From contig JAJDCH010000009.1 in assembly GCA_029260905.1 (NCBI GenBank), forward strand, positions 26,498-90,497: DNA of 64,000 bases, given 5' to 3'. Position numbers and translations under genes: made by a program. The notes beneath the pieces are model-generated. The model was given only the letters and a program-made list of their open reading frames with translations, was not told where the DNA came from and did no database searches. The stretch is from Candidatus Levyibacteriota bacterium. Lineage in GTDB: Bacteria > Patescibacteriota > Microgenomatia > Levybacterales > UBA12049. Every line of letters begins with the position of its first letter. The first letter of the stretch is position 1. This document shows positions 10,408-45,043 of the stretch, in pieces.

Positions 10408-10409
10408 AC

Positions 10410-11186: not shown

Positions 11187-11232
11187 AACTACTTAGCAAT
11201 AAAAACAATCGGATAATTGAACAATGCTTGGC

Positions 11233-11772: not shown

Positions 11773-11775
11773 AAA

Positions 11776-11900: not shown

Positions 11901-11901
11901 T

Positions 11902-14391: not shown

Positions 14392-14400
14392 AATTTTATT

Positions 14401-14877
14401 TTAAATTACTCGACTGCCCAGCTCTGTCTTGCTGGTCAAACGCCTTATTTCTTTTTCAAAATCTTCAGGATCTACAAATTGTTTGAACACACTTGCAAAT
14501 CTTATATAGGCCACTTTATCCAGTTTTTTAAGCTTCTTGGCAACCATGTCTCCTATGATCTTGCTTTCAACTTCCAGAGTATCAAGGCTCAAAAGAGTTC
14601 TTGTGATATCTGTGACAATCATTTCTATCGTATCAGCAGATATTTCTGTTTTCTCACAAGCCTTAAGAATTCCCCCTTTTAACTTTTCCCTGCTGAATTG
14701 CTCTCTTTTATTATCTTTCTTTATTACAGTCAGCTGGATGTTTTCAATTCTCTCATAAGTAGTAAAACGCTTTGAACAGGCTAGACAAGATCTTCTTCTT
14801 CTTATCGTATCCATATCCGCGCTTTCACGAGTTTCAACTACTTCTGATTCTTTGGTTCCGCAATAAGGACAATGCAT
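14401..14877 (-). CDS. nrdR: transcriptional repressor NrdR
   Basis: MHCPYCGTKESEVVETRES...CLACSKRFTTYE zinc ribbon plus ATP-cone; immediately upstream of nrdJ. Confidence 0.85.
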   Translation of the reverse strand: MHCPYCGTKESEVVETRESADMDTIRRRRSCLACSKRFTTYERIENIQLTVIKKDNKREQFSREKLKGGILKACEKTEISADTIEMIVTDITRTLLSLDTLEVESKIIGDMVAKKLKKLDKVAYIRFASVFKQFVDPEDFEKEIRRLTSKTELGSRVI

Positions 14878-26165: not shown

Positions 26166-26171
26166 TTACTG

Positions 26172-26258
26172 CGGAGGGAGGGGGATTCGAACCCCCGATA
26201 ATCTTTCGACCATACGAGCTTTCCAAGCCCGCGCACTCGACCACTATGCGATCCCTCC
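26172..26258 (-). tRNA. tRNA-Ser (GGA anticodon)
   Basis: GGAGGGA acceptor, anticodon loop TTGGAAA, long variable arm, T-arm GGGGGTTCGAATCCCCC; 87 nt. Confidence 0.7.
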
Positions 26259-26344
26259 TATTTGGGTATTGTAACAAAAACACCTCAGCCAGTCACCCAA
26301 ACCACCTTGACAACCCCCTCAAAATACATCACACTAAAATTAGT

Positions 26345-31300: not shown

Positions 31301-31518
31301 TCCATTTCAGCTCTTATCTGCCTATCCAACTCGTCCTTATCCGCAAGACTTCCACCCCTGGGTGGACCCATTCCGCGTTTTATAAACTCCATTACCGAGA
31401 ATCGCTTCTCATGTGGCAAATCCTCTATTCGCTTGCCTTCATGGGCTTCCCATTCTTTTTCCGCCCTTAACTGTTCTGGTGTTTTTTCGCTTGTCTGGTC
31501 AAGTACTGCTGCTTCCAT
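28342..31518 (-). CDS. giant hypothetical protein (1058 aa), K/E-rich, cytoplasmic, with a single C-terminal TM tail anchor
   Basis: Long uninterrupted frame; no signal peptide; C-terminal GKIGFVAFLAALGFFIRAIAQ; convergent 4-nt overlap with the VirB6-like gene. Confidence 0.45.
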   Translation of the reverse strand: MEAAVLDQTSEKTPEQLRAEKEWEAHEGKRIEDLPHEKRFSVMEFIKRGMGPPRGGSLADKDELDRQIRAEMEIGQWRRKMQKIEEDIQQGLSTIGGINGGREGHQWNERQNEPPPGEAIKGKRDEWRFVAEDKNGERVEKNENGGLIKQETDVVKMSKIKVDWSEYGTGWTNEKIKQVGKNLVTHLNLDFGQAKSVLEIMLAKGKKPEDFSNLETLAQESKTQIDQWLNDPEKRGQAENYKNNPAAFCLLQKLNLPFDWIRKFVFYKDFTAENDHEADRNPDSIEGLAWRAMNGYGHGEWGLSGRFPLLEMRIIYKHIDDDPRKGYVLENGKKVIDTEKSKYYVNESNFVTWAQNRMWFAWDFNQESPVDFFSAVKIDRPSGFGTVSLQDVFLNPKKFFNSEDGKTEYYELYRQLVKQSMALTLTHSWSTQLHKIRDEPDKLKQGMLEAFLDSKLTKQTFEKNLLNLMTTFSHKFKGYKKGEEFQSDNNLGAAWLEMHHILHHLSDFDKLREMLGSKSDFFDKKKMLEIFKNVQSMQTGVSGEKRQSAPFTAEKLKYFEKAFDAKTGRVETREQAENFIKFINIYGDKGPDPNVETFLKYALMEVVGDKYELNDDDGKRDEHARWYAYMLANSIPGFSGGAGRNDVEAGGFNRYNRLMHFQQYRNKMLPRGDFFGNFFSMFQMKSLLVDMWSGIRTTDFEEVDREYRNEKGEWVKDSVKRYRTPLEIFDELIKLKTTQKKLLEKLNADLNGAGLSKEEKEKRMAEAKSQMDQAYLDRAGKLQFEQGAQEYYVRDHFQKALHMYDTIMEQKEQFKFEDFTTHHPLKGVTFDAEKFTNAYQKNFVKPLRYLFRDYGKLDFSRKVRSLDQQATIVLGKPVWRDMPLGEAMFGYDMLNRKEFWKDSKDGGYERDEDGRIRIDYHKVQDSKNQRLLVKQFIMSKFAADFLAHKAYHAKDPRYDFTYYLNVIDALKSLPVDIEGDEFTKLGKIKAEEGYFNKADMEWFHKRAKTATERMFGVQMLKDLTVGQRGHPDGKIGFVAFLAALGFFIRAIAQQTKSN

Positions 31519-31650
31519 AAAATCTCCTTTCTTTAAGATACTACTACCATCATATCTAGTAGCAGATCACAGTGTCAATTGAGGCAATTGTAGCCCTATA
31601 AAGCAGAACAAGCTTTATATATAAATTACAAGAAGTTAACAAAACAGTTT

Positions 31651-31678
31651 TTGCGCTTTGAGTTTTGCGCTTTGAGTT
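31651..31678 (+). repeat. 14-bp direct repeat x2 (TTGCGCTTTGAGTT) overlapping the promoter of the regulator gene
   Basis: ttgcgctttgagtt ttgcgctttgagtt is followed at once by TATAAT (31680-31685) and ATG 31692. Confidence 0.75.
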
Positions 31679-31685
31679 TTATAAT
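31658..31685 (+). promoter_or_regulatory. putative promoter TTGAGT-16nt-TATAAT embedded in the direct repeats, leaderless-type
   Basis: The -35-like TTGAGT lies inside the first repeat copy; TATAAT sits 6 nt before the ATG. Confidence 0.35.
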
Positions 31686-31691
31686 CTATTT

Positions 31692-33026
31692 ATGGACGAA
31701 TATTTTGAAGCAACATATCCTGATACCGCACGAATTGCGACACTGAGTCAAATTGCCGATTTTGTCAAAAAAGGCGAATCCGCACAGCTGATTGGATTGC
31801 CCACATCTGGAAGATCTATAATTCTCAGACTCCTTGCACACAACAGCAAAGTGCGGTCAAAACACTTTGGCAAAAATTCCAAATTCCATTTTGTATTAAT
31901 TGACTTTTCAGAAATAAAAAACAGATCACTTTTTGACTGCATGAAGTTTTTCTTTTTGTCCCTGTCTGATTCTCTAAGAGCACGAGGAATGGATGAAGAA
32001 TATAAAAAAGTAAATCAATTATTTAAAGAGTCACTCAGCTTTAATGACGAGCTGGTTTTGTTTCAGGCCTTAAAAGACGCATTTGACTATCTTATCCTTG
32101 AAAGAAACCTAAACATTACATTACTCTTTGACAGATTTGAAGAATATATTCCAAGTATTACAGATCAGTTTTTTACCAACCTTCGCACTCTTCGCTCTCG
32201 CGCAATTTATAAGTTTTCAGTTATTTTTTCTCTTACCCGTCCGCTTGAGACCATGCTTGACCCATTACTTCTTGCCGATTTTTATGAACTAATTGCCGGC
32301 AATCTGATATTTCTATCCCTTGCAGATAGTGAAATAAACAAAACAAGAATAAAACATATTGAAAAAGTAACAGGCAAAAAACTCTCTTCAGTTCTTTTTG
32401 ATGAACTAACAAAACTGACAGGCGGAGCGGGCAAGCTTCTAAAAATTTCTACAGAAAGCATATTGGCCAATCAACAATTTAACAATTTAGCTATAGAGCA
32501 ATTGAGCAAAAATTTATTGCCCCAAAAACCAGTTCAAAAAACTCTGTCTGAAATCTTGCGTTCTCTGACACCTGAGGAACAGTCAGATCTCCTTACTCAA
32601 AAGTATGATAACTCTGATGTTGAGGAATATTTCGAAAAAATAGGTCTTGTTAAAAATAAAAGGATTCAAATTCCACTTTTTGAGGAATATCTGAAATCAG
32701 ATTTGATTAAAAATTCAATAAATGAAGAAAAAATTTTCTATGATAAAAATACCAATACAATCAAAAAGGGCGAGACAACTGTTTCTGACCAGCTTACTTC
32801 ATCTGAGTTCTTACTTCTCAGGCATCTTTTGCAAAATAAAGGTCAGGTTATAACTCGCGATGATATAATCAGCGCTGTCTGGCCGGATGTGAAATCAACT
32901 GCAGGAATAACTGATCAAGCAGTTGATCAGTTGATATTTAGATTAAGAAGAAAAATTGAAGAAAATCCCGCCAGTCCAGTCTATCTTTTTACTATTAAAG
33001 GACGCGGTTTCAAGTTTGAATCATAG
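31692..33026 (+). CDS. transcriptional regulator: N-terminal NTPase-like domain (degenerate P-loop) fused to a C-terminal OmpR/PhoB-type winged-helix DNA-binding domain, with no receiver domain
   Basis: C-terminus LTSSEFLLLRHLLQNKGQVITRDDIISAVWPDV...VDQLIFRLRRKIEEN...TIKGRGFKF is a Trans_reg_C signature; N-terminal LIGLPTSGRSIILRLL is P-loop-like. Start placed at ATG 31692; the track start is 31665. Confidence 0.55.
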   Translation: MDEYFEATYPDTARIATLSQIADFVKKGESAQLIGLPTSGRSIILRLLAHNSKVRSKHFGKNSKFHFVLIDFSEIKNRSLFDCMKFFFLSLSDSLRARGMDEEYKKVNQLFKESLSFNDELVLFQALKDAFDYLILERNLNITLLFDRFEEYIPSITDQFFTNLRTLRSRAIYKFSVIFSLTRPLETMLDPLLLADFYELIAGNLIFLSLADSEINKTRIKHIEKVTGKKLSSVLFDELTKLTGGAGKLLKISTESILANQQFNNLAIEQLSKNLLPQKPVQKTLSEILRSLTPEEQSDLLTQKYDNSDVEEYFEKIGLVKNKRIQIPLFEEYLKSDLIKNSINEEKIFYDKNTNTIKKGETTVSDQLTSSEFLLLRHLLQNKGQVITRDDIISAVWPDVKSTAGITDQAVDQLIFRLRRKIEENPASPVYLFTIKGRGFKFES

Positions 33027-33038
33027 CCTCAAAAAGCC

Positions 33039-33067
33039 TTGACAAAAACTCTAAATTTTTATATATT
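33039..33067 (+). promoter_or_regulatory. sigma70-like promoter TTGACA-17nt-TATATT upstream of the basic-protein gene
   Basis: TTGACA at 33039-33044 and TATATT at 33062-33067; ATG at 33076. Confidence 0.35.
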
Positions 33068-33075
33068 ATAATGCT

Positions 33076-33609
33076 ATGAAAGAGGGTAATCACATTGTTA
33101 TTCCATTCAGACCGAAAGTACGCGGTGGGGAAACAGTGCCTCAAGTAGAACAAAAAAAGAAAAAGCAATCAACTCTAAAAACAGCTATGGATTTGGTGCA
33201 GGAGCATGATCCCGCTATTCCTCAAACAACAAAAAGATTTTCAATGCGACAAAGATATCGAGGCAACTGGAGGATGCTTAGAACATCAGCTGGTAGAGAA
33301 ATGTACAACAAGGTTCTAGCGATAAAATATCTTCGCGCAGAAACAGCAAGCAAAAAAGAGCAATCCAAACCTAACAGGGAAAATGAAAAAGCACCAAGAA
33401 CGCGACAAAAAGAAACGCTGGTTGCGAGTTTCAAAAACAGAAAAAGGCTTAGAAAAGAAAGCGCTGCAACTGGAATAAATCTTGGTATGTTTGTGCCAGA
33501 GACTCCAAAACAAGAAATTGACTCCAAGCTAAAAAAAGAATTAAGAAACAGACCATTTACTGTTTTTGATGCAGGAAAAAATAAAACAAAGGAGAAACAA
33601 GCCGCTTAA
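33076..33609 (+). CDS. hypothetical highly basic (K/R-rich) protein
   Basis: No TM helix; about 30% K plus R; possibly nucleic-acid binding. Confidence 0.35.
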   Translation: MKEGNHIVIPFRPKVRGGETVPQVEQKKKKQSTLKTAMDLVQEHDPAIPQTTKRFSMRQRYRGNWRMLRTSAGREMYNKVLAIKYLRAETASKKEQSKPNRENEKAPRTRQKETLVASFKNRKRLRKESAATGINLGMFVPETPKQEIDSKLKKELRNRPFTVFDAGKNKTKEKQAA

Positions 33610-33652
33610 GACTCCCCTTGCAATTTCTCAAAACTCAAAGTAATCTATAGAC

Positions 33653-33976
33653 ATGGCTTATCTTGCTCAATTGCGACTTCCAGGCGGCAACAATATCGAT
33701 GCCCCAAAAGGCATTCCCCAGGGTGGAATAAATGAAGTTCAATCAATCTTCAGCAACAGCATTACTATCATGATTATACTGACAATCATTCTTGCTCTTT
33801 TCTTTCTTATCTGGGGAGGTATCCAATGGATCACATCAGGTGGGGATAAAAATAAGGTAGCACAAGCCCGAGCCAAACTAACCTGGGCAATAATTGGTGT
33901 TGTTGTTGCTTTTGTTTCGTTTTTAATCGTAAATCTTATTGGATACTTCTTTAATATCCCAATTTTCGGGTCTTAA
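33653..33976 (+). CDS. VirB2/TrbC-like small membrane protein (pilin candidate), paralogue 1
   Basis: Two TM helices flanking the invariant FFLIWGGIQWITSGGDKNKVAQARAK motif shared with the next two genes. The N-terminus lacks a clear signal peptide, so the start is uncertain. Confidence 0.4.
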   Translation: MAYLAQLRLPGGNNIDAPKGIPQGGINEVQSIFSNSITIMIILTIILALFFLIWGGIQWITSGGDKNKVAQARAKLTWAIIGVVVAFVSFLIVNLIGYFFNIPIFGS

Positions 33977-34043
33977 ACTTTATCAATTCTTCTTTTGGCT
34001 ATTGACAAGGAGAAAAAAAATATACTATCATTGAGTTAATCCT

Positions 34044-34469
34044 ATGAAAAAGGCACAAAACATAATCTTAGCTTTATTTGTCGCTCTATCTCTTTTTGTC
34101 TTTACACCAGCTGTTGTTTTTGCTGGTCCTACGATAAATCCATGTCCAGACGGAGCTGACGGAGGCGGAACTGACTTCGGCAACCTTTGCGACCTTGACG
34201 CTGACCAAGTCGGTCCATTGATTTCAAGAGTTGTACAGATTCTTCTTATCGCTGCTGCAATTATTGCTCTTTTCTTTCTCATCTGGGGAGGTATTCGCTG
34301 GGTAACATCAGGTGGAGACAAAGCCAAGGTAGATGAAGCCAGAAAACACATTGTTGCTGCAATAATTGGTCTGATTATTGCTTTCCTAGCATTCTTTATC
34401 TTAAGTTTTGTACTTAACCTCTTTGGAATAAGCCTTACTGAATTACAGCTTCCACAGCTTACTCCATAA
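34044..34469 (+). CDS. VirB2/TrbC-like small membrane protein (pilin candidate), paralogue 2
   Basis: Signal peptide, then TM-loop-TM with FFLIWGGIRWVTSGGDKAKVDEARKH. Confidence 0.45.
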   Translation: MKKAQNIILALFVALSLFVFTPAVVFAGPTINPCPDGADGGGTDFGNLCDLDADQVGPLISRVVQILLIAAAIIALFFLIWGGIRWVTSGGDKAKVDEARKHIVAAIIGLIIAFLAFFILSFVLNLFGISLTELQLPQLTP

Positions 34470-34514
34470 ACCTAAACTTGCTTTTCTACCCACGTCTTTG
34501 ATAGGCTAAATAAA

Positions 34515-34919
34515 ATGACACAAATTAAAAAATCCTTTGTTTTTTTCTTAATGCTTACAGGCTTATTTGCTATGCTCCCAAGTCCAGCTCTCGCAAACAG
34601 CTGGGACAGTTGTGTTAAAAAGCTTCCAGCCGGAGGCGAGGTCCCAACTCTTAGATGTTTTCCGGTTGTATTTAGCAATCTTACCAGCACAGCTCTTACA
34701 TTTGTGGGCGCAGTTGCTGTAATTCTTATTGTCTATTCGGGCATCAAATTTGTAACATCAGGTGGAGATCCCAAGAAAGTCGGTGAAGCTCGAGCAATTA
34801 TGACCTATGCGATAATTGGTGCAGTAATAGTTCTGCTATCTTTTACAATAATTTATCTGATTAGCTACTTTACAGGCGCGGATTGTGTAACTGATTTTTC
34901 TATTGGAAGCTGCAATTAA
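34515..34919 (+). CDS. VirB2/TrbC-like small membrane protein (pilin candidate), paralogue 3
   Basis: Signal peptide, then TM-loop-TM with ILIVYSGIKFVTSGGDPKKVGEARAI. Confidence 0.45.
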   Translation: MTQIKKSFVFFLMLTGLFAMLPSPALANSWDSCVKKLPAGGEVPTLRCFPVVFSNLTSTALTFVGAVAVILIVYSGIKFVTSGGDPKKVGEARAIMTYAIIGAVIVLLSFTIIYLISYFTGADCVTDFSIGSCN

Positions 34920-35035
34920 AACGGTGGTTTGGCCTCTTTTCATCAAAACTTTTCACAAAAACCCTGTCAATCTGGATCATTTGACACACTTTGTTCCGGT
35001 TGAAATGCTATTTTTCACATTATACACTGATTGAA

Positions 35036-36397
35036 ATGGACCAGCACCCAATACCCCAAGATGTTACAGGCTTTCAATTTAAGCTTATTGGAAGCATGAC
35101 TGTAAAACAGTTTGGCTTTGTTGCAACTGGGGTTATAATGGCAGTTCTTTTCTACTACCTGCCACTTAGCGGGTTTTTTGGTATTCTTTTCAAGATTTTT
35201 GCAATTCCCTTTTTTGGAGCAAGTGGCTTTATAATTGCATTTGTACCAATTGATGGCAGGTCAATTGATGTAATGGTCGGAAATTTTACTAAAGCGCTTT
35301 TTTCTCCCAATCAGTACGTCTATCACAAACTCGGCAAAAAATTTAGCTTCTCAACAGTCAATACTCACAAGAGTCTTTTTGCCCAAAATCAAACCACCAG
35401 CTCTCATCCAAAACAAGAAGTAACACAAAAAACAGATCAGCTTCGATCATTTCTAAAAGAAAGCGTCAAATCAAAACCAAAAAGCGCATTAGATGAAAAA
35501 GAAGCTGCTTTTATCAGCTCTTTTGCTCCAGCACCTCAAACAACTCCCCAAGCGGCCATTTCTTCACATCCAACAAAAAACATACCCATGCTTCAGCAAG
35601 CACAACAAATACTGTCATCTATAAAGCCGGTTCAAACCATTACGCACCAAACACCTAACCAAACCCCTCAACAAACAAAAAAGGCCATCCAAGATACTAC
35701 AAATCCAATTGATCAAAATAACCCAACTAGTAAAAATGTGCCTGAGCATAATCAAGCACCAGCTGCAAAACCAATAGACGCAGAGCCTGACTCGCTTCAT
35801 AAACAAATTCAAGAAGCGCATAACCAAAAACTCAGACTAGAAAAAGAATTGGCTGATTTAAAAGCTCAACTAGGCACGCGTAAAACCCAACCAGAACCTG
35901 AACCATCTCAAGCAGCAACACAGATGTCTTCAACGACAACCACCCCTGCTCAACCAACAAAACCAACAGAAACAAACACTATGCCTGCTACACAGCCTCA
36001 ACAAGCGACAACGTCAGTTGCTCCAACACCAAGCTCAACACACGTAAGAAGTATTCCAAAAGAACAATCTAAAAAAATGGGTCTTCTCGCGCCAGATACT
36101 CCAAATGTCATAGTTGGTGTAGTCAAAGACGCCAGAGGCAATCTTCTCCCAAACGTGCTTGTTGAGGTCAAAGACAGGGAAGAAAACCCAGTTCGCGCAT
36201 TTAAAACAAATCCTCTTGGACAGTTTGTTTCAGCAACCCCTCTTTTACCGGGCGCGTATACAATAAGCCTTGAGGACCCCAAAAAACAACACACATTTGA
36301 TGAGATTCAGATAACGGCAGGCGGCCAAATCTTACCACCCATTGAGATAATTTCTTATGACGCCAGAGAACAACTAAGAAGAGAGTTGTTTAATTAA
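35036..36397 (+). CDS. PrgI/VirB3-like membrane domain fused to a Q/T/P-rich linker and a C-terminal carboxypeptidase-regulatory-like beta-sandwich domain
   Basis: N-terminus MDQHPIPQDVTGFQFKLIGSMTVKQFGFVATGVIMAVLFYYLP...FVPIDGRSIDVMVGNF matches the PrgI-family pattern; C-terminus VIVGVVKDARGNLLPNVLVEV...GAYTISL is CarboxypepD_reg-like. Start placed at the internal Met. Confidence 0.45.
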   Translation: MDQHPIPQDVTGFQFKLIGSMTVKQFGFVATGVIMAVLFYYLPLSGFFGILFKIFAIPFFGASGFIIAFVPIDGRSIDVMVGNFTKALFSPNQYVYHKLGKKFSFSTVNTHKSLFAQNQTTSSHPKQEVTQKTDQLRSFLKESVKSKPKSALDEKEAAFISSFAPAPQTTPQAAISSHPTKNIPMLQQAQQILSSIKPVQTITHQTPNQTPQQTKKAIQDTTNPIDQNNPTSKNVPEHNQAPAAKPIDAEPDSLHKQIQEAHNQKLRLEKELADLKAQLGTRKTQPEPEPSQAATQMSSTTTTPAQPTKPTETNTMPATQPQQATTSVAPTPSSTHVRSIPKEQSKKMGLLAPDTPNVIVGVVKDARGNLLPNVLVEVKDREENPVRAFKTNPLGQFVSATPLLPGAYTISLEDPKKQHTFDEIQITAGGQILPPIEIISYDAREQLRRELFN

Positions 36398-36409
36398 TTT
36401 ATATAACTT

Positions 36410-37093
36410 ATGCCTGTTCAAAAAGCACATGCTACAACGCAAAAATTTACAGAGATTGTTGACTTTGTCGACAATCTGGTAATCCTTGAGGGGGGAGCTG
36501 CTTGCCTTGTGATTGAAATAACAGCTAGCAACTTCTCGCTTCTATCCAGAAGAGAGCAGGATTCTCGTATTTTTTCTTACGCTTCGCTTCTTAATTCACT
36601 TTCTTTTCCAATACAAATACTTATCAGAAATAAAAAAATGGATATATCGCTTTATCTAAGAGAGCTAGATGCTGTTGTTAAAAGCACCAAAAACGAACAA
36701 CTGGCAACATATATTGATTATTATCGAGATTTTGTTCAGGAAATGGTGACAGTAAACGTTGTTTTAAACAAAGCTTTTTATATCGTCATTCCATTTTCAT
36801 CACTTGAGCTGGGCATTGGTGGAGCAACAAAACAAGCAACAAAAAAAGGCTCTCCAGCCCCATCTCAAAAAGATGTTTTTGCTCAAACAGCTGCAAAAGC
36901 TCTGCAATCAAAGGCAAGCTCAGTCCTTGGACAGCTTCAAAAATTTGCGGTAACAGCTCGTGTTCTTGAAAAGGAAGACCTAGTGAAGCTTTTTTATGAT
37001 ATATACAATGACGGCGCAAATATAGGAACTGAGCAGGTAAAAGATGCTGCAGATACTCCAATCATAAGAAAAGAAGGAGAAGTTCAAGCATGA
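36410..37093 (+). CDS. hypothetical protein, possibly the detached N-terminal domain of a split VirB4
   Basis: EIVDFVDNLVILEGGAACLVIEITASNFSLLSRREQDS resembles the VirB4 N-terminal region. ATGA overlap with the downstream VirB4 ATPase gene. Confidence 0.3.
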   Translation: MPVQKAHATTQKFTEIVDFVDNLVILEGGAACLVIEITASNFSLLSRREQDSRIFSYASLLNSLSFPIQILIRNKKMDISLYLRELDAVVKSTKNEQLATYIDYYRDFVQEMVTVNVVLNKAFYIVIPFSSLELGIGGATKQATKKGSPAPSQKDVFAQTAAKALQSKASSVLGQLQKFAVTARVLEKEDLVKLFYDIYNDGANIGTEQVKDAADTPIIRKEGEVQA

Positions 37094-39144
37094 AAATCCC
37101 ATTTTTAAATAAATCATCCAAACAAACACCCACCTCACAAGTGGTAAAAAAAGCGCAAGGCGTTCCCCAACAAAAAACTGCACCTCAGGTTGTAAAACCG
37201 CAACAAAATAAAGCTATTGCAACGCTTGAGAAGGGCGCAACGTCAGTTATTGACATAATAGCTCCCTCATCTGTTGAAGTTGACTTTCGTTATGTCAGGG
37301 TTGGCGAGACCTATTACACAACTCTTTTTCTCGCTGGCTATCCACGCTATGTTTCTCCAGGCTGGCTAACGCCAATTATTGATTATGACCATACATTGGA
37401 TATCAGCATGTTTATTTACCCAACCTCATCATCAGACGTTCTTAGTGATTTAAAAAGAAAAATTGGTGAAATGCAAGCAACTATTTCATCTGATGCAGAA
37501 GCAGGCAAAGCAACAGACCCGACAGTTGAGGCGGCGCTTGAAGACGCGCTTGGTCTTCAGGAAGAGCTAGCCAAGGGAGTTGAGAGATTCTTCCAGTTTG
37601 GTTTTTATATCACTGTTTCAGCAGGAGACCTGGGAGAACTCCAAGAAACAACCAAAGAATTAAAAACCACACTAAGCTCTCTTCTTCTTGCAGGCAAAAC
37701 AGCAACTCTTCAGTCAGAAGAAGGCTTTAAGTCAACTCTTCCAATCGGACAAGACAGGCTTTATATAACACGAAATATGGATACCACCTCTCTTGCAACC
37801 ACCTTTCCCTTCACATCAGCTGTTTTAACTCAAAATAAAGGCGTAATGTATGGAGTGAATCAACAGAATGGGTCACTTATCATCTTTGACAGATTTTCCC
37901 TTGAAAATGCCAATGAGGTGGTTCTTGGAAAATCTGGCGCGGGAAAATCTTACACAATTAAGCTTGAAATCGCCAGACAATTCATGCTTGGCGCAGAGGT
38001 TATTGTAATTGATCCTGAAGGAGAGTATGGAACACTTACTCCAACCCTCGGAGGTGAGACAGTTGATTTTTCATCAAACTCCGAAGTAAAACTAAACCCT
38101 TTTGACCTTGCAGATGTTTATGAAGAGGGCGAAAACCAATTGGGGTTGAAGATTCTTTCTCTACACGGACTTCTAAAAATAATCATGGGGGACATGGATG
38201 CAGAGCATGATGCTATTCTAGACAGAGCCTTAATTGAAACTTATCGTCAAAAGGGAATAACTACCGACCCTGCAACCCAAAAAAAACAACCCCCACTTAT
38301 GGAAGATCTTTATAAAGCGCTCCTTGGCATGGAAACACAAACTGCAAAAGACCTAGCTTTCAGGCTCGAGAAATTCATCAAAGGTTCTGCTGCTGGGATT
38401 TTTAATCAACAATCAAACTTCGTAATCGACAATCCTCTAACAGTTTTTTCAATCCGAAACCTTGAAGAGGAGTTAAGACCAGTTGCAATGCACATCATTC
38501 TTGATTTTGTCTGGACAAAGGTTAAAAAAACTCTTAAAAAAAGAATTCTGATCCTTGATGAAGCATGGTACATGATGAAATATCAGGACTCTGCATCGTT
38601 TGTCTACTCAATTGCAAAAAGAGCGCGTAAATACTACCTTGGCATGACCACGGCTACACAAGATGTCGAAGACTTTCTCAAAAACGAATATGGCAAGGCG
38701 GTTCTCACCAACTCATCAATCCAAATACTTCTTAAGCAAGGGACTGCTGAGGTCGATATGATCGCTGATACGTTTTATTTATCGGAGGGAGAAAAGGCCC
38801 TTCTTCTTTCATCTGATGTAGGGGAAGGACTTTTCTTTGCCGGACAAAACCATGTAACCATGAAGGTGTTTGCAGCGCCTTTTGAGCATGAATTGATAAC
38901 ATCCAATCCTCAAGAGGTTATGAAACGACAAGAAGAAGAAAAGGCAGAAAGAGACACTGAGGCAGCAGAGTCAGCTTCTCAAGCTCCACAAGCAGCACAG
39001 CAGACCACAACACAACAACCTAGCCCTCAGACAACACCACAAACACCTGCTCCTGAAGCGCCAGCTGCTCCCCAAGCCCAAAATTCCACAACTCCAACTA
39101 CTACACCTCCGGGTGTTCCCCCAACTGCTCAGCAGACATCATAG
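37090..39144 (+). CDS. VirB4/TrbE/CagE-family type IV secretion ATPase (ATPase portion) with Pro/Gln/Thr-rich C-terminal tail
   Basis: Walker A VVLGKSGAGKSYTIK, VIVIDPEGEY, Walker B RILILDEAW, and the upstream GYPRYVSPGWL region typical of VirB4. Confidence 0.7.
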   Translation: MKIPFLNKSSKQTPTSQVVKKAQGVPQQKTAPQVVKPQQNKAIATLEKGATSVIDIIAPSSVEVDFRYVRVGETYYTTLFLAGYPRYVSPGWLTPIIDYDHTLDISMFIYPTSSSDVLSDLKRKIGEMQATISSDAEAGKATDPTVEAALEDALGLQEELAKGVERFFQFGFYITVSAGDLGELQETTKELKTTLSSLLLAGKTATLQSEEGFKSTLPIGQDRLYITRNMDTTSLATTFPFTSAVLTQNKGVMYGVNQQNGSLIIFDRFSLENANEVVLGKSGAGKSYTIKLEIARQFMLGAEVIVIDPEGEYGTLTPTLGGETVDFSSNSEVKLNPFDLADVYEEGENQLGLKILSLHGLLKIIMGDMDAEHDAILDRALIETYRQKGITTDPATQKKQPPLMEDLYKALLGMETQTAKDLAFRLEKFIKGSAAGIFNQQSNFVIDNPLTVFSIRNLEEELRPVAMHIILDFVWTKVKKTLKKRILILDEAWYMMKYQDSASFVYSIAKRARKYYLGMTTATQDVEDFLKNEYGKAVLTNSSIQILLKQGTAEVDMIADTFYLSEGEKALLLSSDVGEGLFFAGQNHVTMKVFAAPFEHELITSNPQEVMKRQEEEKAERDTEAAESASQAPQAAQQTTTQQPSPQTTPQTPAPEAPAAPQAQNSTTPTTTPPGVPPTAQQTS

Positions 39145-39167
39145 AGCTTTTTTGCTACTATTAAACT

Positions 39168-40445
39168 ATGGACATTGAGAACAAATTACCAGAAGAAGAT
39201 CAATCAGAAGAACAAGAAAACAATGACCGATCTAGCCCCTCAAATCCCAGCTCCAATGGCAGGGGTGAAAAAAAGGAAGCCAAGAACGAAGTAAAACAAA
39301 ACAAAAAAGAAAATATTGACAAAAACGATCAAAAAGCTAAGGGCAAAGATGATGCTCTCAATCAACAACACAGCAAAGATAAAGGGCTAGGACTTTTAAG
39401 CAAAAAATTAAAGGCTGTTCGCGAAGCAAAAAGAGGAGAGAGGCTTAAGGCTGCAAAAACCTTAGCCAAAAGCGCAATCAAAAAAAAAGTTTTGCAAGCT
39501 GCTAAAAAAGGTCTTATTGCTGGTGGAAACACCATTGCGCCTGGACTTGGTACTGCTACAGGGTTTGCTATAGATCATCCCAAAACAGCTGCAATTATTG
39601 TTGTCTTGGCCATTACACTTCCAATTATAATATTAACTATGGTTTTTTCTGCATTTACCAGTTCTTTAAACACTTCTGGTGAGGGTGATTCCGTTTTTGT
39701 TTCAGGCTCTTGTCCACATGATGCGATTGCTGGCGGCGTGGCAGAATGTTCGATAAACGTTTCTTATCCTGGAGAAGCATCAGACATACTAATTTCAATT
39801 GACCTTCCACCTGGCACTGAATATATCGACTCTGTGCCTGAAGCCACTTTTGACGGCAAGACCATCTCGTGGAGTCTTATTGGCCCAAACCCCTTACCAA
39901 ACGCAAAACTAAGCAATGTCAACACAACCCTGCTTTTCCATCTACGTGGAAGTGGTGTTCCCTCGGCAAGCCTACCCATTGCTTACTCGATTGTTCCATT
40001 TGTTGAATCAGAAACCCCCATTCAAGAAGCATTAAACAATTCTGGTTGTGATGGATCAACCCCGAATAATCCTCATGGAAATTTTGGCAACCCAAATTGC
40101 GATTTTAATAAAAATGAATTGGGTAAAATTTTAAGAAGAGAAGACCCTGCCAACGCATACAAATGGGATGCAATAATAGCTTGTGAGAGTACATACAACC
40201 CAAACGCCTATAATCCAAATTCCTCTAGTGGAAAAGGGGCATATGGGCTTTTGCAGATGAATCCCGCACAACAAAGAACTGATATTTATAGATTTGATGC
40301 TGGAAATGTAAACTGGAACCCAGACAGTAGGCCACTTGGTGTTGCAGCAGGAGCACAGGTTACAAACGCAATAAACTATAATACTATTGGATTGAAAGGA
40401 AGTTTCAAGTATTGGGAATGTAGAAAGGCAGCTGGAATAAGATGA
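39168..40445 (+). CDS. membrane-anchored cell-wall hydrolase: DUF11-like repeat domain plus Rpf-type lysozyme-like transglycosylase domain (VirB1 functional analogue)
   Basis: K-rich N-terminus, TM (AAIIVVLAITLPIIILTMVF), DUF11-like SINVSYPGEASDILISIDLPPGTEYI, and C-terminal WDAIIACESTYNPNAYNP...GKGAYGLLQMNP resembling the Rpf transglycosylase-like domain. Confidence 0.5.
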   Translation: MDIENKLPEEDQSEEQENNDRSSPSNPSSNGRGEKKEAKNEVKQNKKENIDKNDQKAKGKDDALNQQHSKDKGLGLLSKKLKAVREAKRGERLKAAKTLAKSAIKKKVLQAAKKGLIAGGNTIAPGLGTATGFAIDHPKTAAIIVVLAITLPIIILTMVFSAFTSSLNTSGEGDSVFVSGSCPHDAIAGGVAECSINVSYPGEASDILISIDLPPGTEYIDSVPEATFDGKTISWSLIGPNPLPNAKLSNVNTTLLFHLRGSGVPSASLPIAYSIVPFVESETPIQEALNNSGCDGSTPNNPHGNFGNPNCDFNKNELGKILRREDPANAYKWDAIIACESTYNPNAYNPNSSSGKGAYGLLQMNPAQQRTDIYRFDAGNVNWNPDSRPLGVAAGAQVTNAINYNTIGLKGSFKYWECRKAAGIR

Positions 40446-40981
40446 TAAACATAGACAAAAAATACATTTTACTAGGAGCGCTTTTTTTAACTCTTGTGTT
40501 TGTGCTTGTGTTAATTGCAACCGGATCAGTCGGAGCGCCAGTTGCAGAGGACCAGTCAACAATTCCAACACAATCACCTATTGATGGCAATCTTGATCAA
40601 GCCAACACAATTCCACCCGTCACATACAATACTGATGCAAGTAAAAAACAGATTGAGAAAAAAGAAAACAGAATTCCTTTGACTCAATCTGATCTTGATG
40701 CCAAACAAGAAATTCTTTCCCTTCTGCCTGAAGGGCAGAGCTATGGAATTATTTATTCGTCAGAAAATTTCAATATTGAATACGTAGAGTCTTTAGATTT
40801 GATAAAGGTAGAAATTTTGTCAAACAGTATTGAAGATATTAAAACCGAAGCTGTTAACTGGTTTAGGGATCAAGGATTGAGCCAGGAGGGAGTTTGCAAC
40901 TATCCGGTTGATTTTTATCTAGGTTCTGGCGTTGTCCCGGATGGCGGAGAAATATTTAGCCCTATTGCGCCAGGTTGTTGA
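40442..40981 (+). CDS. hypothetical bitopic membrane protein (N-terminal TM plus about 150-aa external domain), possible VirB8/PrgL-like component
   Basis: Topology and size only; ATGA overlap with the upstream gene. Confidence 0.3.
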   Translation: MINIDKKYILLGALFLTLVFVLVLIATGSVGAPVAEDQSTIPTQSPIDGNLDQANTIPPVTYNTDASKKQIEKKENRIPLTQSDLDAKQEILSLLPEGQSYGIIYSSENFNIEYVESLDLIKVEILSNSIEDIKTEAVNWFRDQGLSQEGVCNYPVDFYLGSGVVPDGGEIFSPIAPGC

Positions 40982-40993
40982 GAGTTTTAAAAT

Positions 40994-41698
40994 TTGTTTA
41001 TGAGAAAAAAATTAAATATTTTGTTTATATTTTTAATGATCTCTGTTTTTTCAATCATTAACCCCCTAATTGTCTCTGCTCAGACGGGAATTGCTTGTAT
41101 TGATGTTTATTTTGACCCAGGCGCACCTAAACCAGATCCAGCAGAGGGTTGTCCTGATGTGGCTGCACCGGGAGAAATACCAAGCGCTGACAGGACAGCT
41201 CTTTTACAACAAATTTCTACTTTTATTAACAATGGCACCATCTCTTTTTCTCATGACAATGACAAAAACGCAATGCTTGGTAACGGTATTGTCCAGAGGA
41301 GGGTTGGAACCGGAACTGTAGAAATAAGCACTAAGGCGCTACGAATGTATGTTTATATGGCTAATCAGGGTTTTAAATTCAACGTTTCATCTATGATAGG
41401 AGGACACTCAAGGTGTGTTAAGGGGTCTAGTCCTTGCCGCGAATCTGCCCATTGGTCAGGAAGAGGAGTTGATATTAACAATATAAATGATTTTGATATA
41501 GACACAAACAGGTCTAGGGAATCCCAAAATACATTAAAAAATTTTATGATTGTTTTAAACAATATGCCGACAGAGATTTCCCCTCGTCAAATAATTTGCT
41601 CTGGCAATGGTGTGGTAGACTCCTCTGTCTTAGCTTTACAAAAGGGTGTAAGTGGTATTGTTGATGGGCACCTAGATCATGTTCATATAGGTTATTAA
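40994..41698 (+). CDS. secreted peptidase M15-family (VanY/endolysin-like D-Ala-D-Ala carboxypeptidase fold) cell-wall hydrolase
   Basis: Signal peptide; SAHWSGRGVDIN (S-x-H-x-x-G-x-x-x-D zinc motif) and C-terminal DHVHIGY. Confidence 0.45.
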   Translation: MFMRKKLNILFIFLMISVFSIINPLIVSAQTGIACIDVYFDPGAPKPDPAEGCPDVAAPGEIPSADRTALLQQISTFINNGTISFSHDNDKNAMLGNGIVQRRVGTGTVEISTKALRMYVYMANQGFKFNVSSMIGGHSRCVKGSSPCRESAHWSGRGVDINNINDFDIDTNRSRESQNTLKNFMIVLNNMPTEISPRQIICSGNGVVDSSVLALQKGVSGIVDGHLDHVHIGY

Positions 41699-41699
41699 T

Positions 41700-42284
41700 A
41701 TGGATAAAGTGAACTTTCTCAAAAAAAATAAATGGATATTCAGCTTGGTTGTGTTTATTGTTTTTTTGCTGGGCGCATTCTCACTTATTCCATCAAGCAC
41801 CAATCAATTTCCTGAAGAAATTACCCCCACCAGATCTCCTGAGTCAAGTCAAAATGGGTTTTCTGAAGAAGATCCAAAAAATTTTGCTCATGAATATGAG
41901 TTTGATCCCTTAATCGTAGAAGGAGCGACCAATCAAGAGGTATTAACAGACGGAACAATAATATATTCTGTTCCTTCAGAAAACCCAAACCGACCAGATG
42001 AAGTTTATGTAAAAAATGGTCTTATTGTTTTTAAAAGTGTATATATTCCCATAAGCTGGACTATGAAGCTTTCTGAGCTTGTAGAATTTACGGGTGATCC
42101 TCCGTGGATTTTTGAAGGGTCTAAATATTATGGTGACACAATAAGGGTTTATGTTTACCCTGATATGGGGCTTGCATTGATTGTGGATGAAGATAAAGAT
42201 TTAGTGTTGGAGCAACACCTTTTTGACCCCATGCCTGTTGAGCAATACATTGAAAGGTATGGGGAGGATATCCCTGCGCGTTAG
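41700..42284 (+). CDS. hypothetical bitopic membrane protein
   Basis: N-terminal TM WIFSLVVFIVFLLGAFSLIP; no motif. Confidence 0.35.
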   Translation: MDKVNFLKKNKWIFSLVVFIVFLLGAFSLIPSSTNQFPEEITPTRSPESSQNGFSEEDPKNFAHEYEFDPLIVEGATNQEVLTDGTIIYSVPSENPNRPDEVYVKNGLIVFKSVYIPISWTMKLSELVEFTGDPPWIFEGSKYYGDTIRVYVYPDMGLALIVDEDKDLVLEQHLFDPMPVEQYIERYGEDIPAR

Positions 42285-43396
42285 TTTTGCTGTACTTTTA
42301 CCGGCATTATTATATGAAGAAATGAGGGATCGTCTTTTATTTTGAAAACTCCTGGATTTAGGGGGCCTGTCATTTCAAAAACAAGTTCTTTTGAGTTTAT
42401 GGTAGATAGGGCTTCTTGCAGGTAGCGCGCGTTAAAAGCTATTTCATTGTCCTCTCCCTTCATGTTTGCCTCCACTTCTACTTCATTTTCTCCTGTTGAT
42501 GTTGATTGAGAAGATATTGTTATTTTATTTTTTCCAAAAGATAATTTAATAATATTTGCTCCATCTCTTGCAAAAACAGAGCATGTTTTAACAGCTCTTT
42601 GCATTTCTTCTCTGTCAAAAGAAACATTTAATGAAAAATCGGTGGGAATTATTTTTTCAAAATTAGGGTATGTGGCCTCAATTAATCTTCCCACAAGCAC
42701 ACTTTCTCCTTGTTCGAAAAGTAGCTGATTGTTGTCTGTCGACACATACATTCCTACCTCTTCCGAATCATCATTTATAGATAATAGTTCTTTAAACACT
42801 CTGGCAGGAACTATAAAAGGTGTTTTGTTGTTTAATTTTTTTGTTTTTGTTTTGTGGTGTTTTAAAGACAAACGATAACCATCTGTTGCTACAAGAAGAA
42901 ACCCTTCTTCTTCTGGTCTTAAAAGAACACCTGACAAGGCAGGTCTTGTGGTGTCTGTGCTTGCCGAAAAAATAACTTGAGAGAAATCTTTCTGTCCTTC
43001 TTCTTTATTAAAATTTGTTATTTTTTCTCCTTTTTCTTTATATATATTTGGGAATTCTTCTTCATTAATTGTTTGGAAGGTGCTTTTTGTTTTTTTTGTA
43101 CTCACAGTAAGGGAGGTTTTGTTTTTTGTTTCTATGGTTATGGTTTCTTCATTAAGAGAACTAACCAATTCTATAAATGTTCTTGCGGGTATTGTTATTT
43201 CTCCTTCCTCTTCTATTTTTGCAGGTATTTTGGTTTCTATGCCTATTTCTAAATCAGTAGCTGTTATTTTCAATTCTTTACCTTGTGCTCGTATAAGAAT
43301 ATTTAAAAGGATTGGTAGTTGCCCCTTGCTGGAAACAGCATGATTTACAAAAGAAAGTTTGTTTTTTAAAATGTTTGTTAAAACCTGTATCTTCAT
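42281..43396 (-). CDS. dnaN: DNA polymerase III beta sliding clamp
   Basis: MKIQVLTNILKNKLSFVNHAVSSKGQLPILLNILI...ATDLEIGIE, the three-domain clamp pattern; downstream of dnaA. Confidence 0.85.
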   Translation of the reverse strand: MKIQVLTNILKNKLSFVNHAVSSKGQLPILLNILIRAQGKELKITATDLEIGIETKIPAKIEEEGEITIPARTFIELVSSLNEETITIETKNKTSLTVSTKKTKSTFQTINEEEFPNIYKEKGEKITNFNKEEGQKDFSQVIFSASTDTTRPALSGVLLRPEEEGFLLVATDGYRLSLKHHKTKTKKLNNKTPFIVPARVFKELLSINDDSEEVGMYVSTDNNQLLFEQGESVLVGRLIEATYPNFEKIIPTDFSLNVSFDREEMQRAVKTCSVFARDGANIIKLSFGKNKITISSQSTSTGENEVEVEANMKGEDNEIAFNARYLQEALSTINSKELVFEMTGPLNPGVFKIKDDPSFLHIIMPVKVQQN

Positions 43397-43644
43397 ATAA
43401 CTATTTTAGTTGTTGTAGTAGTCTATCTGGAAAAGTGGAAAAAATCAACTTATAAATATCTTATAAAGAAATTTATATAAATTAGTTTATCCACCAAATC
43501 AACCTTTTTTTTTAAAAAAACAAAATATAATAATGCCAAACCTCATTAAACCATAGGCATAAAAAATGTGGATAAAATGTTTAAATCTTTCTGTATAAAA
43601 TGTTAACAAAAAAATAACAAAAACTTCTTAACAAATTATCCACG
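43397..43644. other. oriC-type region: AT-rich dnaA-dnaN intergenic spacer with three DnaA boxes
   Basis: TTATCCACC at 43487-43495; TGTGGATAA (perfect reverse-complement consensus) at 43567-43575; TTATCCACG at 43636-43644 overlapping the dnaA stop; T10A7 tract at about 43496-43515. Confidence 0.7.
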
Positions 43645-45000
43645 TATTGTTTTGGTAATCCCCAATATTTCCTCTTGTATTTCTTTTTTATTATTCATTA
43701 AATCACGCACCTTATCCACAGCGTGCATGATTGTTGTGTGATCTCGACCACCCATCACATTTCCAATATTGGTTAATGTAAGCCCCAACTCTTCTTTTAA
43801 TATAAACATGGTTATATGTCTAGCGCGAACCAAAAAAGCATCTCTTTTGGGACCAGTTAGCATGGTGGGCTTTATTCTATAAAAAGAACATACCTGATCT
43901 ATAACATCGTCTGCATGTAGGTGGTGAGTTTTTTCAGGCACAAAGTTTCCTAATGACTGTTGAGCCACCTTCAGTGTTAAAGTCTCATTTTTTGTTTTTG
44001 CTTCTGTAACAACCCTAAGCAAAAGCCCCTCAAGAGATCTTGTATCTGTTGCTTGCTCTGCTAAATATTTTGCAACATCAATAGGTAGATCAAAACCAAA
44101 CTTTTTGGCTTTTATCAAAAGAATAGCAGTCTTTAATTCAAAATCCGGTTTTGCAATATCTACAGTTAACCCTCCTGCAAAACGGGAAGAAAGTCTTTTT
44201 TCAAGCTTTTTTATTTCATGGGGAGGTCTATCCGAAGAAAGAGCTATTTGTGAGCCCTTATCTATTAAAATATTAAAAGTGTGAAAAAGCTCCTCTTGAA
44301 CCTTTTCTTTGCCCTCAACAAATTGAATATCGTCAATTATAAGAAGGTTTGCAGATCGAAATCTTTTTTTCATTCTTCCTGTATCATTGCTTCTAATAGC
44401 TTCAACCACCTCGTTTGTAAACTCCTCACTAGTTATGTAGATTATTTTTTGAGAAGGGTTGTCCACATAAACCTTATTTGCTATAGCATGCATTAAATGT
44501 GTTTTTCCAACACCAACAGGACCATAGATAAAAAGCGGATTGTAAGATTTTCCAATATTACCTGCAACTGTTTGTGCAGAAACAGTTGCTAGTTGATTGC
44601 TGCCTGAAACAGCAAAGTTGTTAAATGTAAAGTCTGGCCTCACACGTGGTAAGTGACCAATTGTTTTTTCTTCATTTCCAGCATTTTTTATCGTTTGTTC
44701 TGCAAAAAGAGGCCCTTCATCAATGTCTTTGTTTTTAAGCATGACACCCACTCTTGGTACAAAAATAACTGAGACCTTTTCTCCGGTATGAAGATAAAGA
44801 GACTCTTCAATCTCTTTTAAAAACCTTGTTTTTAACATGTTTATCACCATTGGAGAGGTTGCAGCAACTGACGCTGTTTTTGCATTAATTGATAAAAGAG
44901 AAGTTGGTTTGAGAAGGGCGGCAAATGTTCCTCGAGAAACGCTAGGCTTTATTCCAGATAAAACCTTGTCCCAAACTTTTTTTAACTTTATTTCGTTCAT
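43636..45000 (-). CDS. dnaA: chromosomal replication initiator protein DnaA
   Basis: AAA+ Walker A GPVGVGKTHLMHAIAN, Walker B LLIIDDIQF, and a C-terminal DnaA-box-binding helix-turn-helix. Confidence 0.9.
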   Translation of the reverse strand: MNEIKLKKVWDKVLSGIKPSVSRGTFAALLKPTSLLSINAKTASVAATSPMVINMLKTRFLKEIEESLYLHTGEKVSVIFVPRVGVMLKNKDIDEGPLFAEQTIKNAGNEEKTIGHLPRVRPDFTFNNFAVSGSNQLATVSAQTVAGNIGKSYNPLFIYGPVGVGKTHLMHAIANKVYVDNPSQKIIYITSEEFTNEVVEAIRSNDTGRMKKRFRSANLLIIDDIQFVEGKEKVQEELFHTFNILIDKGSQIALSSDRPPHEIKKLEKRLSSRFAGGLTVDIAKPDFELKTAILLIKAKKFGFDLPIDVAKYLAEQATDTRSLEGLLLRVVTEAKTKNETLTLKVAQQSLGNFVPEKTHHLHADDVIDQVCSFYRIKPTMLTGPKRDAFLVRARHITMFILKEELGLTLTNIGNVMGGRDHTTIMHAVDKVRDLMNNKKEIQEEILGITKTIRG

Positions 45001-45034
45001 AGTAGATCATGGCGCAGGGTTAACAGTTTAGTAA

Positions 45035-45043
45035 TGTGGATAA
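45035..45043. promoter_or_regulatory. consensus DnaA box (TGTGGATAA) upstream of dnaA, in the dnaA-rpmH divergent intergenic region
   Basis: Exact reverse complement of TTATCCACA. Confidence 0.65.

Follow-up and report, generated by a model that had tools for sequence, protein, structure and literature searches.

The 64,000-nucleotide stretch of Candidatus Levyibacteriota DNA analysed here (contig JAJDCH010000009.1; hereafter the window, in whose own numbering all positions are given) carries, next to the putative replication origin, a type IV secretion system (T4SS) of the relaxase-free, pilin-bearing kind already published from Patescibacteria (2023, 2025), of which the locus is an ordinary member. 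We consider it very probable that this origin-proximal chromosomal system, with a core taken from monoderm MPF-FATA machinery, is a host-contact organelle and not a conjugation apparatus. The reading draws on the homologies of the component proteins, the intact motifs of two ATPases, a gene order conserved among relatives and the lack of a relaxase in the 64 kb, each of which is set out below.

The ten open reading frames (ORFs) at 33653-42284 lie back to back on the forward strand and encode proteins of 107, 141, 134, 468, 227, 684, 425, 179, 234 and 194 aa, with gaps of 1-71 bp or 4-bp overlaps between them, the latter at two junctions (trsD/virB4 and the hydrolase gene/179-aa gene). A first-pass annotation of the window, whose coordinates match those of our ORF list, had counted nine same-strand genes running up to dnaN; the strand and the reach to dnaN are borne out, and the count is ten, as its own list sums. 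That annotation read among them three tandem VirB2/TrbC-like small membrane proteins, a PrgI/VirB3-like fusion, a two-piece VirB4 ATPase and, last, a further bitopic protein, placed a VirD4-like coupling ATPase (8014-10407) and a VirB6-like channel protein (26345-28345) elsewhere in the window, and found no relaxase, VirB7/9/10 or VirB11. These readings stand, the VirB6-like one at the level of the protein family; its proposals for the wall hydrolase, an M15 peptidase and a VirB8-like protein fared less well and are taken up with those genes. Significant profile matches to the VirB3, VirB4 and VirD4 families, on which it had made the whole identification depend, were obtained for all three (PrgI, CD1110 and the coupling-protein families), and the E-values put these assignments, like those of the pilins, well outside chance expectation.

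The 684-aa VirB4 ATPase (37090-39144, forward strand) matches NCBIfam conju_CD1110 with an E-value of 4.1e-117 (392 bits; cut-off 325). The VirB4 of Mycoplasma integrative and conjugative elements (ICEs; 1.3e-75) comes second and TraC (1.9e-52) after it, and Pfam adds P-loop_TraG (1.1e-25) and AAA_10. Its Walker A (GKSGAGKS, residue 280) and Walker B (ILILDE, residue 486) motifs are intact, and its C-terminal tail is rich in Pro, Gln and Thr. Immediately upstream, a 227-aa protein (36410-37093, forward) has VirB4_plasma as its best NCBIfam match (E 1.6e-8, positions 105-233 of the model) and also matches TrsD (3.6e-4); the ATPase covers model positions 277-893, and trsD was found in 49 of the 50 related loci described below, which are cited by L numbers. 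Because the two proteins occupy complementary stretches of the profile, their genes overlap by 4 bp in the window, and both are contained in one 832-aa ORF in a Candidatus Microgenomates metagenome-assembled genome (MAG; L038:9335-11833, forward), we take TrsD to be the detached N-terminal domain of VirB4; the single ORF may either predate the split or have arisen by a later fusion. The two-piece ATPase is thus the published TrsD and VirB4 pair.

Upstream of trsD lies a gene for a 468-aa membrane protein (34991-36397, forward), with an N-terminal PrgI/VirB3-like domain (Pfam PrgI 8.5e-8, residues 20-111, 33.1 bits against a cut-off of 27), a long Pro/Thr/Gln-rich linker and a C-terminal carboxypeptidase-regulatory-like beta-sandwich, whose CarboxypepD_reg match (3.6e-7, residues 374-445, 30.9 bits) falls just under the cut-off of 32.3. 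Since the PrgI and CarboxypepD_reg parts are two separate ORFs in L036, the term fusion is apt.

The second ATPase, a 797-aa VirD4-like type IV coupling protein (T4CP; 8014-10407, reverse strand) with one N-terminal transmembrane segment, is encoded about 23 kb from the main block and is a distant relative of known coupling ATPases. It matches four coupling-protein families in Pfam, of which T4SS-DNA_transf (8.9e-9), TrwB_AAD_bind (9e-8) and TraG-D_C (2.4e-5) exceed their thresholds, and its best NCBIfam match is conju_CD1115 (4.7e-16, under the cut-off). Both Walker motifs are intact, A as GKTGTGKS at residue 400 and B as FLYVDE at residue 648. In L039 and L033 the orthologous gene stands directly beside prgI-trsD-virB4, and we therefore regard this T4CP as functionally tied to the system. 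As both ATPases have their best matches in the CTn2-type families CD1110 and CD1115, the core of the system is of MPF-FATA origin. In the window the T4CP gene sits amid genes of nucleotide metabolism (7183-14877: an HD/YfbR-like 5'-deoxynucleotidase, a PduO-type cobalamin adenosyltransferase, a class II-like ribonucleotide reductase and NrdR); an unannotated 173-aa ORF (10410-10931) comes before it, and immediately downstream ARAGORN places a tRNA-Ile (7892-7965, reverse) with the anticodon UAU, an uncommon bacterial solution to AUA decoding.

The three small membrane proteins at the start of the ten-gene block are VirB2-like T4SS pilins, all of which exceed the Pfam gathering score for T4SS_pilin (PF18895): type 1 (107 aa, 33653-33976; E 2e-9, 37.8 bits against a cut-off of 26.6) has two hydrophobic helices and no obvious signal peptide, while type 2 (141 aa, 34044-34469; 9.8e-12) and type 3 (134 aa, 34515-34919; 5.5e-9), also on the forward strand, each have a signal peptide and two helices. 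Similarity to TrbC/VirB2 is weaker than to PF18895 (type 1 against TrbC, E 0.023). All three also give sub-threshold matches (5.7e-7, 1.2e-8 and 1e-4) to NCBIfam NF045849, the pilin-like protein Mbov_0395 of Mycoplasma ICEs. Pilins are therefore perhaps not foreign to FATA-type systems, and the profile similarity would be consistent with pilin-like proteins already existing in the Tenericutes branch. The order 1-2-3 is kept in 23 of 35 loci, where type 3 is the pilin adjoining prgI; it is the sole pilin type near prgI in six loci. Copies multiply in the type-2 slot: a Levyibacteriota MAG (L028:3207-7018, forward) has seven tandem pilin genes, comprising type 1, five type-2 copies and type 3, so that expansion is restricted to the middle slot. 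Orthologues share 42-62% identity (42-59% for type 1 in the same slot) and the window paralogues roughly 36-51% over partial alignments. The three types are positional orthologues across genomes; if they diverged anciently and are kept in this order, that would suggest a heteromeric pilus or major and minor roles rather than antigenic variation.

The membrane channel would be provided by a divergent VirB6/TrbL-like polytopic protein of 666 aa (26345-28345, forward), which has a signal or transmembrane segment, a Cys-containing extracellular loop, at least five transmembrane helices and a basic cytoplasmic tail. We place its start at 26345, since a longer ORF from 26246 would overlap a tRNA-Ser (26171-26258, reverse) that abuts the gene; the database protein (P0001) is likewise 666 aa. 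The window copy matches nothing in Pfam or NCBIfam, and a PDB profile search with the family came back empty at the sequence level. Among its homologues, however, 15 of 62 match Pfam TrbL/VirB6 (PF04610, best 3.6e-7), and in a Foldseek search of 350,542 PDB chains with an AlphaFold2 model (62-sequence alignment, pLDDT 77) R388 TrwI/VirB6 accounted for six of the top eight matches, with weak scores (best E 0.03, probability 0.93, TM-score about 0.3). On these profile and model similarities we accept the protein as VirB6-like at the family level. Its gene is syntenic in 18 loci.

A VirB4 scan of GTDB species genomes returned 50 loci with VirB4 identities of 42-85%, the best of them in Candidatus Levyibacteriota MAGs (Microgenomates group, Patescibacteria). 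Many of the locus-bearing MAGs (L005-L007, L012, L018-L022, L033, L036 and others) are labelled 'uncultured Gammaproteobacteria', 'Acidiferrales', 'Sulfotelmatobacter', 'Limnocylindrales' or 'Nanoarchaeia', evidently through wrong taxonomy on Candidate Phyla Radiation (CPR) bins. That the returned loci come from CPR-type MAGs is only suggestive of membership of this VirB4 in the monophyletic Patescibacteria clade. Across these loci the conserved order runs from the VirB6-like gene (forward) through a gene for a 1058-aa protein (reverse), an OmpR-type regulator gene (either strand), pilins 1-2-3, prgI, trsD and virB4 to the hydrolase gene, the 179-aa family with one to three members, a variable slot, the 194-aa family with one or two, and then convergent dnaN and dnaA. 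The full block with the VirB6-like gene, the 1058-aa protein and the regulator is present in at least 14 related Levyibacteriota genomes, and in 31 of the 32 loci with dnaN in range that gene is convergent with virB4 and lies 0.4-6.4 kb away. Comparison with related CPR genomes, proposed at the first pass, thus finds the same gene order recurring in dozens. Because that order is conserved from the VirB6-like gene onwards, the functional block in this lineage starts at 26345 and not at 33653. Given its recurrence across Levyibacteriota MAGs, a GC content equal to that of the flanks, and housekeeping neighbours (a Mur ligase, glycolysis, ribonucleotide reductase, a penicillin-binding protein, SmpB and others), the system is, as far as gene order and composition indicate, chromosomal and vertically inherited.

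The position beside oriC that had been proposed for the block agrees with three features. Its final gene (194 aa) shares 4 bp with the stop of convergent dnaN (42281-43396, reverse), followed by dnaA (43636-45000, reverse), the two spanning 42281-45000 with rnpA, yidC and jag/khpB on the other side of dnaA. The only three exact DnaA boxes (TTATCCACA) in the whole 64 kb lie at 43567, 43712 and 45035, on either side of dnaA, and form with one-mismatch boxes at 43487 and 43636 a cluster (43487-45043) that we take as putative oriC. Finally, cumulative GC skew reaches its minimum, and turns, at about 40 kb. The T4SS block (26345-42284) is transcribed toward oriC and is thus head-on to the replication fork; in the rest of the window replication and transcription run the same way for 34 ORFs and head-on for 15 (11 without three forward-strand neighbours of the block, 26246-33609). 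The operon points toward oriC in Microgenomates and probably also in Candidatus Southlakia epibionticum, whose record has the T4SS genes next to dnaA and dnaN on its minus strand. The published accounts explain origin proximity by gene dosage, and in the sections of them consulted we found no discussion of head-on orientation. A scan for promoters and terminators was uninformative, with fewer promoter-like sites than in shuffled sequence.

When all non-shadow ORFs of 100 aa or more in the 64 kb were compared with Pfam, there were no matches to relaxase, Rep_trans, VirB9/VirB10 or VirB11/T2SSE families. The first-pass annotation saw in this a resemblance to minimized Gram-positive (FATA-type) systems, here chromosomal and with pilin-like genes, which is the published architecture.

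Downstream of virB4, the 425-aa protein (39168-40445, forward) has a basic N-terminus and one transmembrane segment (142-160), then a DUF11-like beta domain and, at the C-terminus, a lysozyme-like/lytic transglycosylase domain with a catalytic 'CES' followed by 'GLLQM'. It had been called a VirB1 analogue combining DUF11 with an Rpf-type transglycosylase. The lysozyme-like domain holds, with Pfam SLT above its cut-off (7.5e-5, 22.7 bits against 21.3) and ten weak matches in a PDB sequence search, all c-type lysozymes or EmtA aligned at the catalytic Glu. RpfC reaches an E-value of only 0.006, and DUF11, undetectable in the window copy, enters through 10 of 26 orthologues, among which a fused Peptidase_M15_4 (three) and a glucosaminidase (one) also occur.

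The next protein (179 aa, 40442-40981, forward) consists of an N-terminal transmembrane segment and an extracellular alpha/beta domain, some 110 aa long, in which Cys152 and Cys179 are conserved, and its family is often duplicated (two or three copies in relatives). Its proposed VirB8-like identity is rejected, since neither a VirB8/NTF2 fold nor a profile signal is present; the alignment used is shallow, as the homologue search yielded 2-5 proteins. A second bitopic family, represented by the 194-aa protein (41700-42284, forward; N-terminal transmembrane segment and a conserved domain of about 120 aa), stands last before dnaN and is unrelated to the first by hhalign. It has 18 homologous ORFs in related loci, 17 of which were aligned with the window copy (A2), and gave no signal in Pfam and PDB searches. 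Between the two lies a secreted or anchored 234-aa protein (40994-41698, forward), orthologous among related loci only to a protein in L010 and thus accessory, whose LAS-type (M15/Hedgehog-like) motif SxHxxGxGxD...HxH (SAHWSGRGVD at 151-160, HVH at 229-231) is conserved in two related ORFs. The zinc-ligand motif is the whole basis for the earlier label of M15 peptidase: Pfam, NCBIfam and PDB sequence searches, with the single sequence and a three-sequence profile, were all negative.

The two other conserved members of the block lie between the VirB6-like gene and the pilins. The 1058-aa protein (28342-31518, reverse), without a signal peptide and with a single C-terminal hydrophobic segment (1035-1053), occurs in 15 related loci, always between the VirB6-like gene and the regulator. 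Pfam (14 homologues), NCBIfam, PDB profile and exhaustive HMMER searches yielded no annotation, and the family is narrow (158 representative clusters at E≤1e-3 among 1.84 billion proteins). An identity as an HUH relaxase is unlikely, because no His is conserved throughout the aligned family; the protein may correspond to SEML1_0011 of S. epibionticum, which is essential and 999 aa long. The 453-aa regulator candidate (31665-33026, forward) ends in an OmpR/PhoB-type winged helix (Pfam Trans_reg_C 3.4e-18), its NCBIfam matches being confined to the C-terminal 100 aa of response regulators, and has an N-terminal domain without a match, a degenerate P-loop-like GLPTSGRS and no receiver domain. It adjoins the pilins in 21 loci, on the forward strand in the window and four loci and on the reverse strand in 17. 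A highly basic 177-aa ORF follows it (33076-33609, forward), without a homologue in any related locus. Far from the block, an ORF at 5319-6602 (forward) carries a MATCAP/DUF1704 domain (microtubule-associated tyrosine carboxypeptidase family; E 3.6e-23), here in a CPR genome.

Among the closest known systems is that of S. epibionticum ML1, in which the T4SS cluster SEML1_0006-0019 is essential for epibiotic growth by transposon sequencing and has a Gram-positive-like composition with an essential pilin array, the coupling protein and relaxase being absent (Wang et al. 2023, PMC10633639). Its published gene order is dnaA, dnaN, recF, two unknowns, a lysozyme-like hydrolase, a DD-peptidase-fold protein, VirB4, an unannotated protein, PrgI, a 999-aa protein, an NTF2-like protein, a TrbL/VirB6-like protein and six PF18895 pilins (Table S2 of PMC10633639). 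The parts list and the dnaA/dnaN neighbourhood are thus the same as ours, and that cluster contains neither a relaxase nor a coupling protein; the small unannotated protein between VirB4 and PrgI holds the TrsD position, and SEML1_0007, with the DD-peptidase fold, holds the same position relative to virB4 as our 234-aa protein. The two differ in the number of pilins (three here, six there) and in gene order, the window having its pilins upstream of prgI and its VirB6-like gene upstream of the pilins, while the NTF2-like (TraM/VirB8-like) SEML1_0012 has no counterpart found here. The window in turn has an OmpR-type regulator, the C-terminal beta-sandwich fused to PrgI and two bitopic families in addition, and belongs to a different class (Microgenomates, not Saccharimonadia). 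The S. epibionticum pilin array is also flanked by a ComF gene and a tRNA-Ser; in the window the tRNA-Ser mentioned above abuts the VirB6-like gene and a ComFC-like gene (double zinc ribbon and phosphoribosyltransferase; 51369-52064, forward) lies about 6 kb past oriC, which may be coincidence.

A survey published in 2025 describes a monophyletic Patescibacteria VirB4 clade related to MPF-FATA, with TrsD, PrgI/VirB3, VirB6 and VirB2-like pilin arrays (the last abundant in Microgenomatia), the T4CP usually far from virB4, relaxases in just 103 genomes and dnaA, dnaN and rnpA nearby (Quinonero-Coronel et al. 2025, PMC12102498), and a review of the same year counts the Patescibacteria systems as a new T4SS type (PMC12857230). 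Our locus resembles this clade in its FATA-affine VirB4, TrsD beside virB4, PrgI, pilin array, distant T4CP, lack of a relaxase and proximity to dnaA, dnaN and rnpA. The survey also finds few VirB6 homologues in Microgenomatia and an association with virB4 for only 22.6% of the VirB3 homologues there, and it ascribes pilin diversity to versatility (PMC12102498); here, by contrast, PrgI adjoins trsD-virB4, a divergent VirB6-like gene lies 5 kb upstream, and the three pilin types are positional orthologues.

Among monoderm MPF-FATA systems (CTn2 CD1110/CD1115, pCF10 PrgH-L, pIP501, pGO1 TrsD and the Mycoplasma ICE Mbov_0395/0397), the likeness extends from the CD1110 cut-off passed by VirB4 and the CD1115 match of the T4CP to the presence of TrsD and PrgI, the absence of VirB7/9/10/11 and a hydrolase beside virB4; the pilins match NF045849 below threshold, and the TrsD piece matches the N-terminus of the Mycoplasma ICE VirB4. 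Unlike those systems, the locus has no relaxase or oriT that we could find, is not on a mobile element and carries a VirB2-like pilin array, while a PrgL/TraM-type VirB8, a CHAP domain in the hydrolase and a PrgB-type adhesin were not detected; adhesin-mediated contact without a VirB2-type pilin, an MPF-FATA trait, gives way here to three PF18895 pilins. With Agrobacterium VirB and R388 Trw the locus shares VirB1-, VirB2-, VirB3-, VirB4-, VirB6- and VirD4-like functions, but it lacks VirB5, VirB7, VirB9, VirB10 and VirB11, as expected for a monoderm envelope. Helicobacter ComB and Sulfolobales Ced offer the parallel of a T4SS-derived ATPase without a relaxase and with possible import, although Ced is only a remote relative (CedB E 1.3e-13, 50 bits against a cut-off of 700; CedD E 6.6e-7) and its accessory proteins differ.

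How such a machine may be assembled, in which direction it transports and what its substrate is can be argued by analogy with these systems. The VirB4 ATPase and its detached N-terminal piece TrsD would dock at the membrane via PrgI/VirB3, and the divergent VirB6/TrbL-like protein would form the membrane channel and platform for pilus assembly. VirB4 could then pull the three VirB2-like pilins out of the membrane and polymerise them into a thin pilus, for which the membrane-anchored lysozyme-like hydrolase and the LAS-motif peptidase may open the peptidoglycan. The two bitopic families and the C-terminal domain of PrgI are probably a wall-spanning scaffold replacing a recognisable VirB8. The OmpR-type regulator and the 1058-aa protein would be lineage-specific conserved neighbours, with the VirD4-like ATPase contributed from 23 kb away. 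The whole would presumably be a host-contact organelle needed by an epibiont on its host cell and moving macromolecules across two envelopes.

That the same machine exports proteins, as effectors or toxins, to the host in the manner of the Dot/Icm, Cag and Xanthomonas killing T4SSs is in our estimate unlikely, though a serious contender. To our knowledge all well-studied T4SSs with VirB2 pili translocate outward, and the T4CP has retained the TraG-D_C substrate-recognition region. For S. epibionticum Wang et al. suggest that the system 'may instead export proteins', relaxase and coupling proteins being lacking near the cluster (PMC10633639). However, we identified no effector candidates with recognisable secretion signals in the window, the conserved neighbours are structural or of no assigned function, and the coupling protein is reported to be dispensable in S. 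epibionticum (PMC12102498). We tentatively prefer import of material from the host, nucleic acids for example, to effector export, because CPR bacteria generally lack nucleotide biosynthesis (PMC12102498, PMC10633639), the T4CP gene lies amid genes of nucleotide metabolism, and a cultivated relative is reported to feed on host RNA (2026 preprint); tubular structures at the interface between that relative and its host may be T4SS pili. The last observation could also be read, together with three conserved pilin types in fixed order and copy expansion in one slot, as a VirB2-type pilus serving solely for host attachment or recognition, without translocation, which accords with the host attachment speculated on in the first-pass annotation. 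We judge this improbable, since attachment in Saccharibacteria is already credited to type IV pili, a separate system (PMC12102498, PMC10633639, PMC12857230), and the system has kept its VirB6-like channel protein and a T4CP whose Walker motifs are intact. The first-pass interpretation as a whole, speculation on attachment or DNA uptake included, amounts in essence to a restatement of published conclusions.

An ICE or integrated plasmid of the conventional conjugative sort, functional or recently inactivated, with its relaxase outside the window, would account for the homology of VirB4, T4CP, TrsD and PrgI to proteins of Firmicutes and Tenericutes elements; a tyrosine recombinase is encoded at 4400-5260, and 103 Patescibacteria genomes do have relaxases (PMC12102498). 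Against this, the block sits next to dnaN/dnaA, at one and the same chromosomal site, in 31 of 32 related genomes and in S. epibionticum, its composition matches that of the flanks, all its ORFs are intact with catalytic motifs conserved, no relaxase domain occurs in the 64 kb, and the recombinase, XerC/D-like in appearance, lies 29 kb away amid housekeeping genes. Because the site is fixed and the genes are intact in dozens of genomes, we hold an element or decaying remnant of this kind to be very unlikely indeed.

Several points nevertheless weigh against a host-contact organelle engaged in uptake. Its function is extrapolated, by analogy, from one Saccharibacteria species to Microgenomates, and in that species reportedly neither the coupling protein nor ComEC-dependent DNA uptake is essential (PMC12102498, PMC12857230), which weakens the case for T4CP-driven import of nucleic acids; the importing systems ComB and Ced are only remote relatives, as the CedB score above illustrates. 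Among the components, no VirB8-like scaffold was found in the locus proteins, the VirB6-like assignment is at family level with a weak fold match, DUF11 is likewise a family-level assignment, and the absence of a relaxase applies to these 64 kb.

The locus is thus a clean example from Levyibacteriota without being a system of a new kind. What it adds is incremental: a candidate for the VirB6 reported as scarce in Microgenomatia, a natural TrsD-VirB4 fusion that backs TrsD as the split N-terminus of VirB4, three pilin types that are positional orthologues, an operon whose head-on direction toward oriC is conserved, two conserved unannotated neighbours in the 1058-aa protein and the receiver-less OmpR-type regulator, and the sub-threshold similarity of the pilins to NF045849. 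It is possible, if rather doubtful, that the Levyibacteriota version holds undescribed lineage-specific parts or layout in its tail-anchored cytoplasmic 1058-aa protein, receiver-less regulator, fixed 1-2-3 pilins and always head-on operon; if so, the head-on layout could couple the expression or mutation rate of host-interaction genes to replication. These points leave the classification unchanged and could help in modelling or dissecting the machine. The Patescibacteria T4SS is among the few machines shown to be essential for epibiotic life, in a group that holds a very large share of uncultured bacterial diversity.

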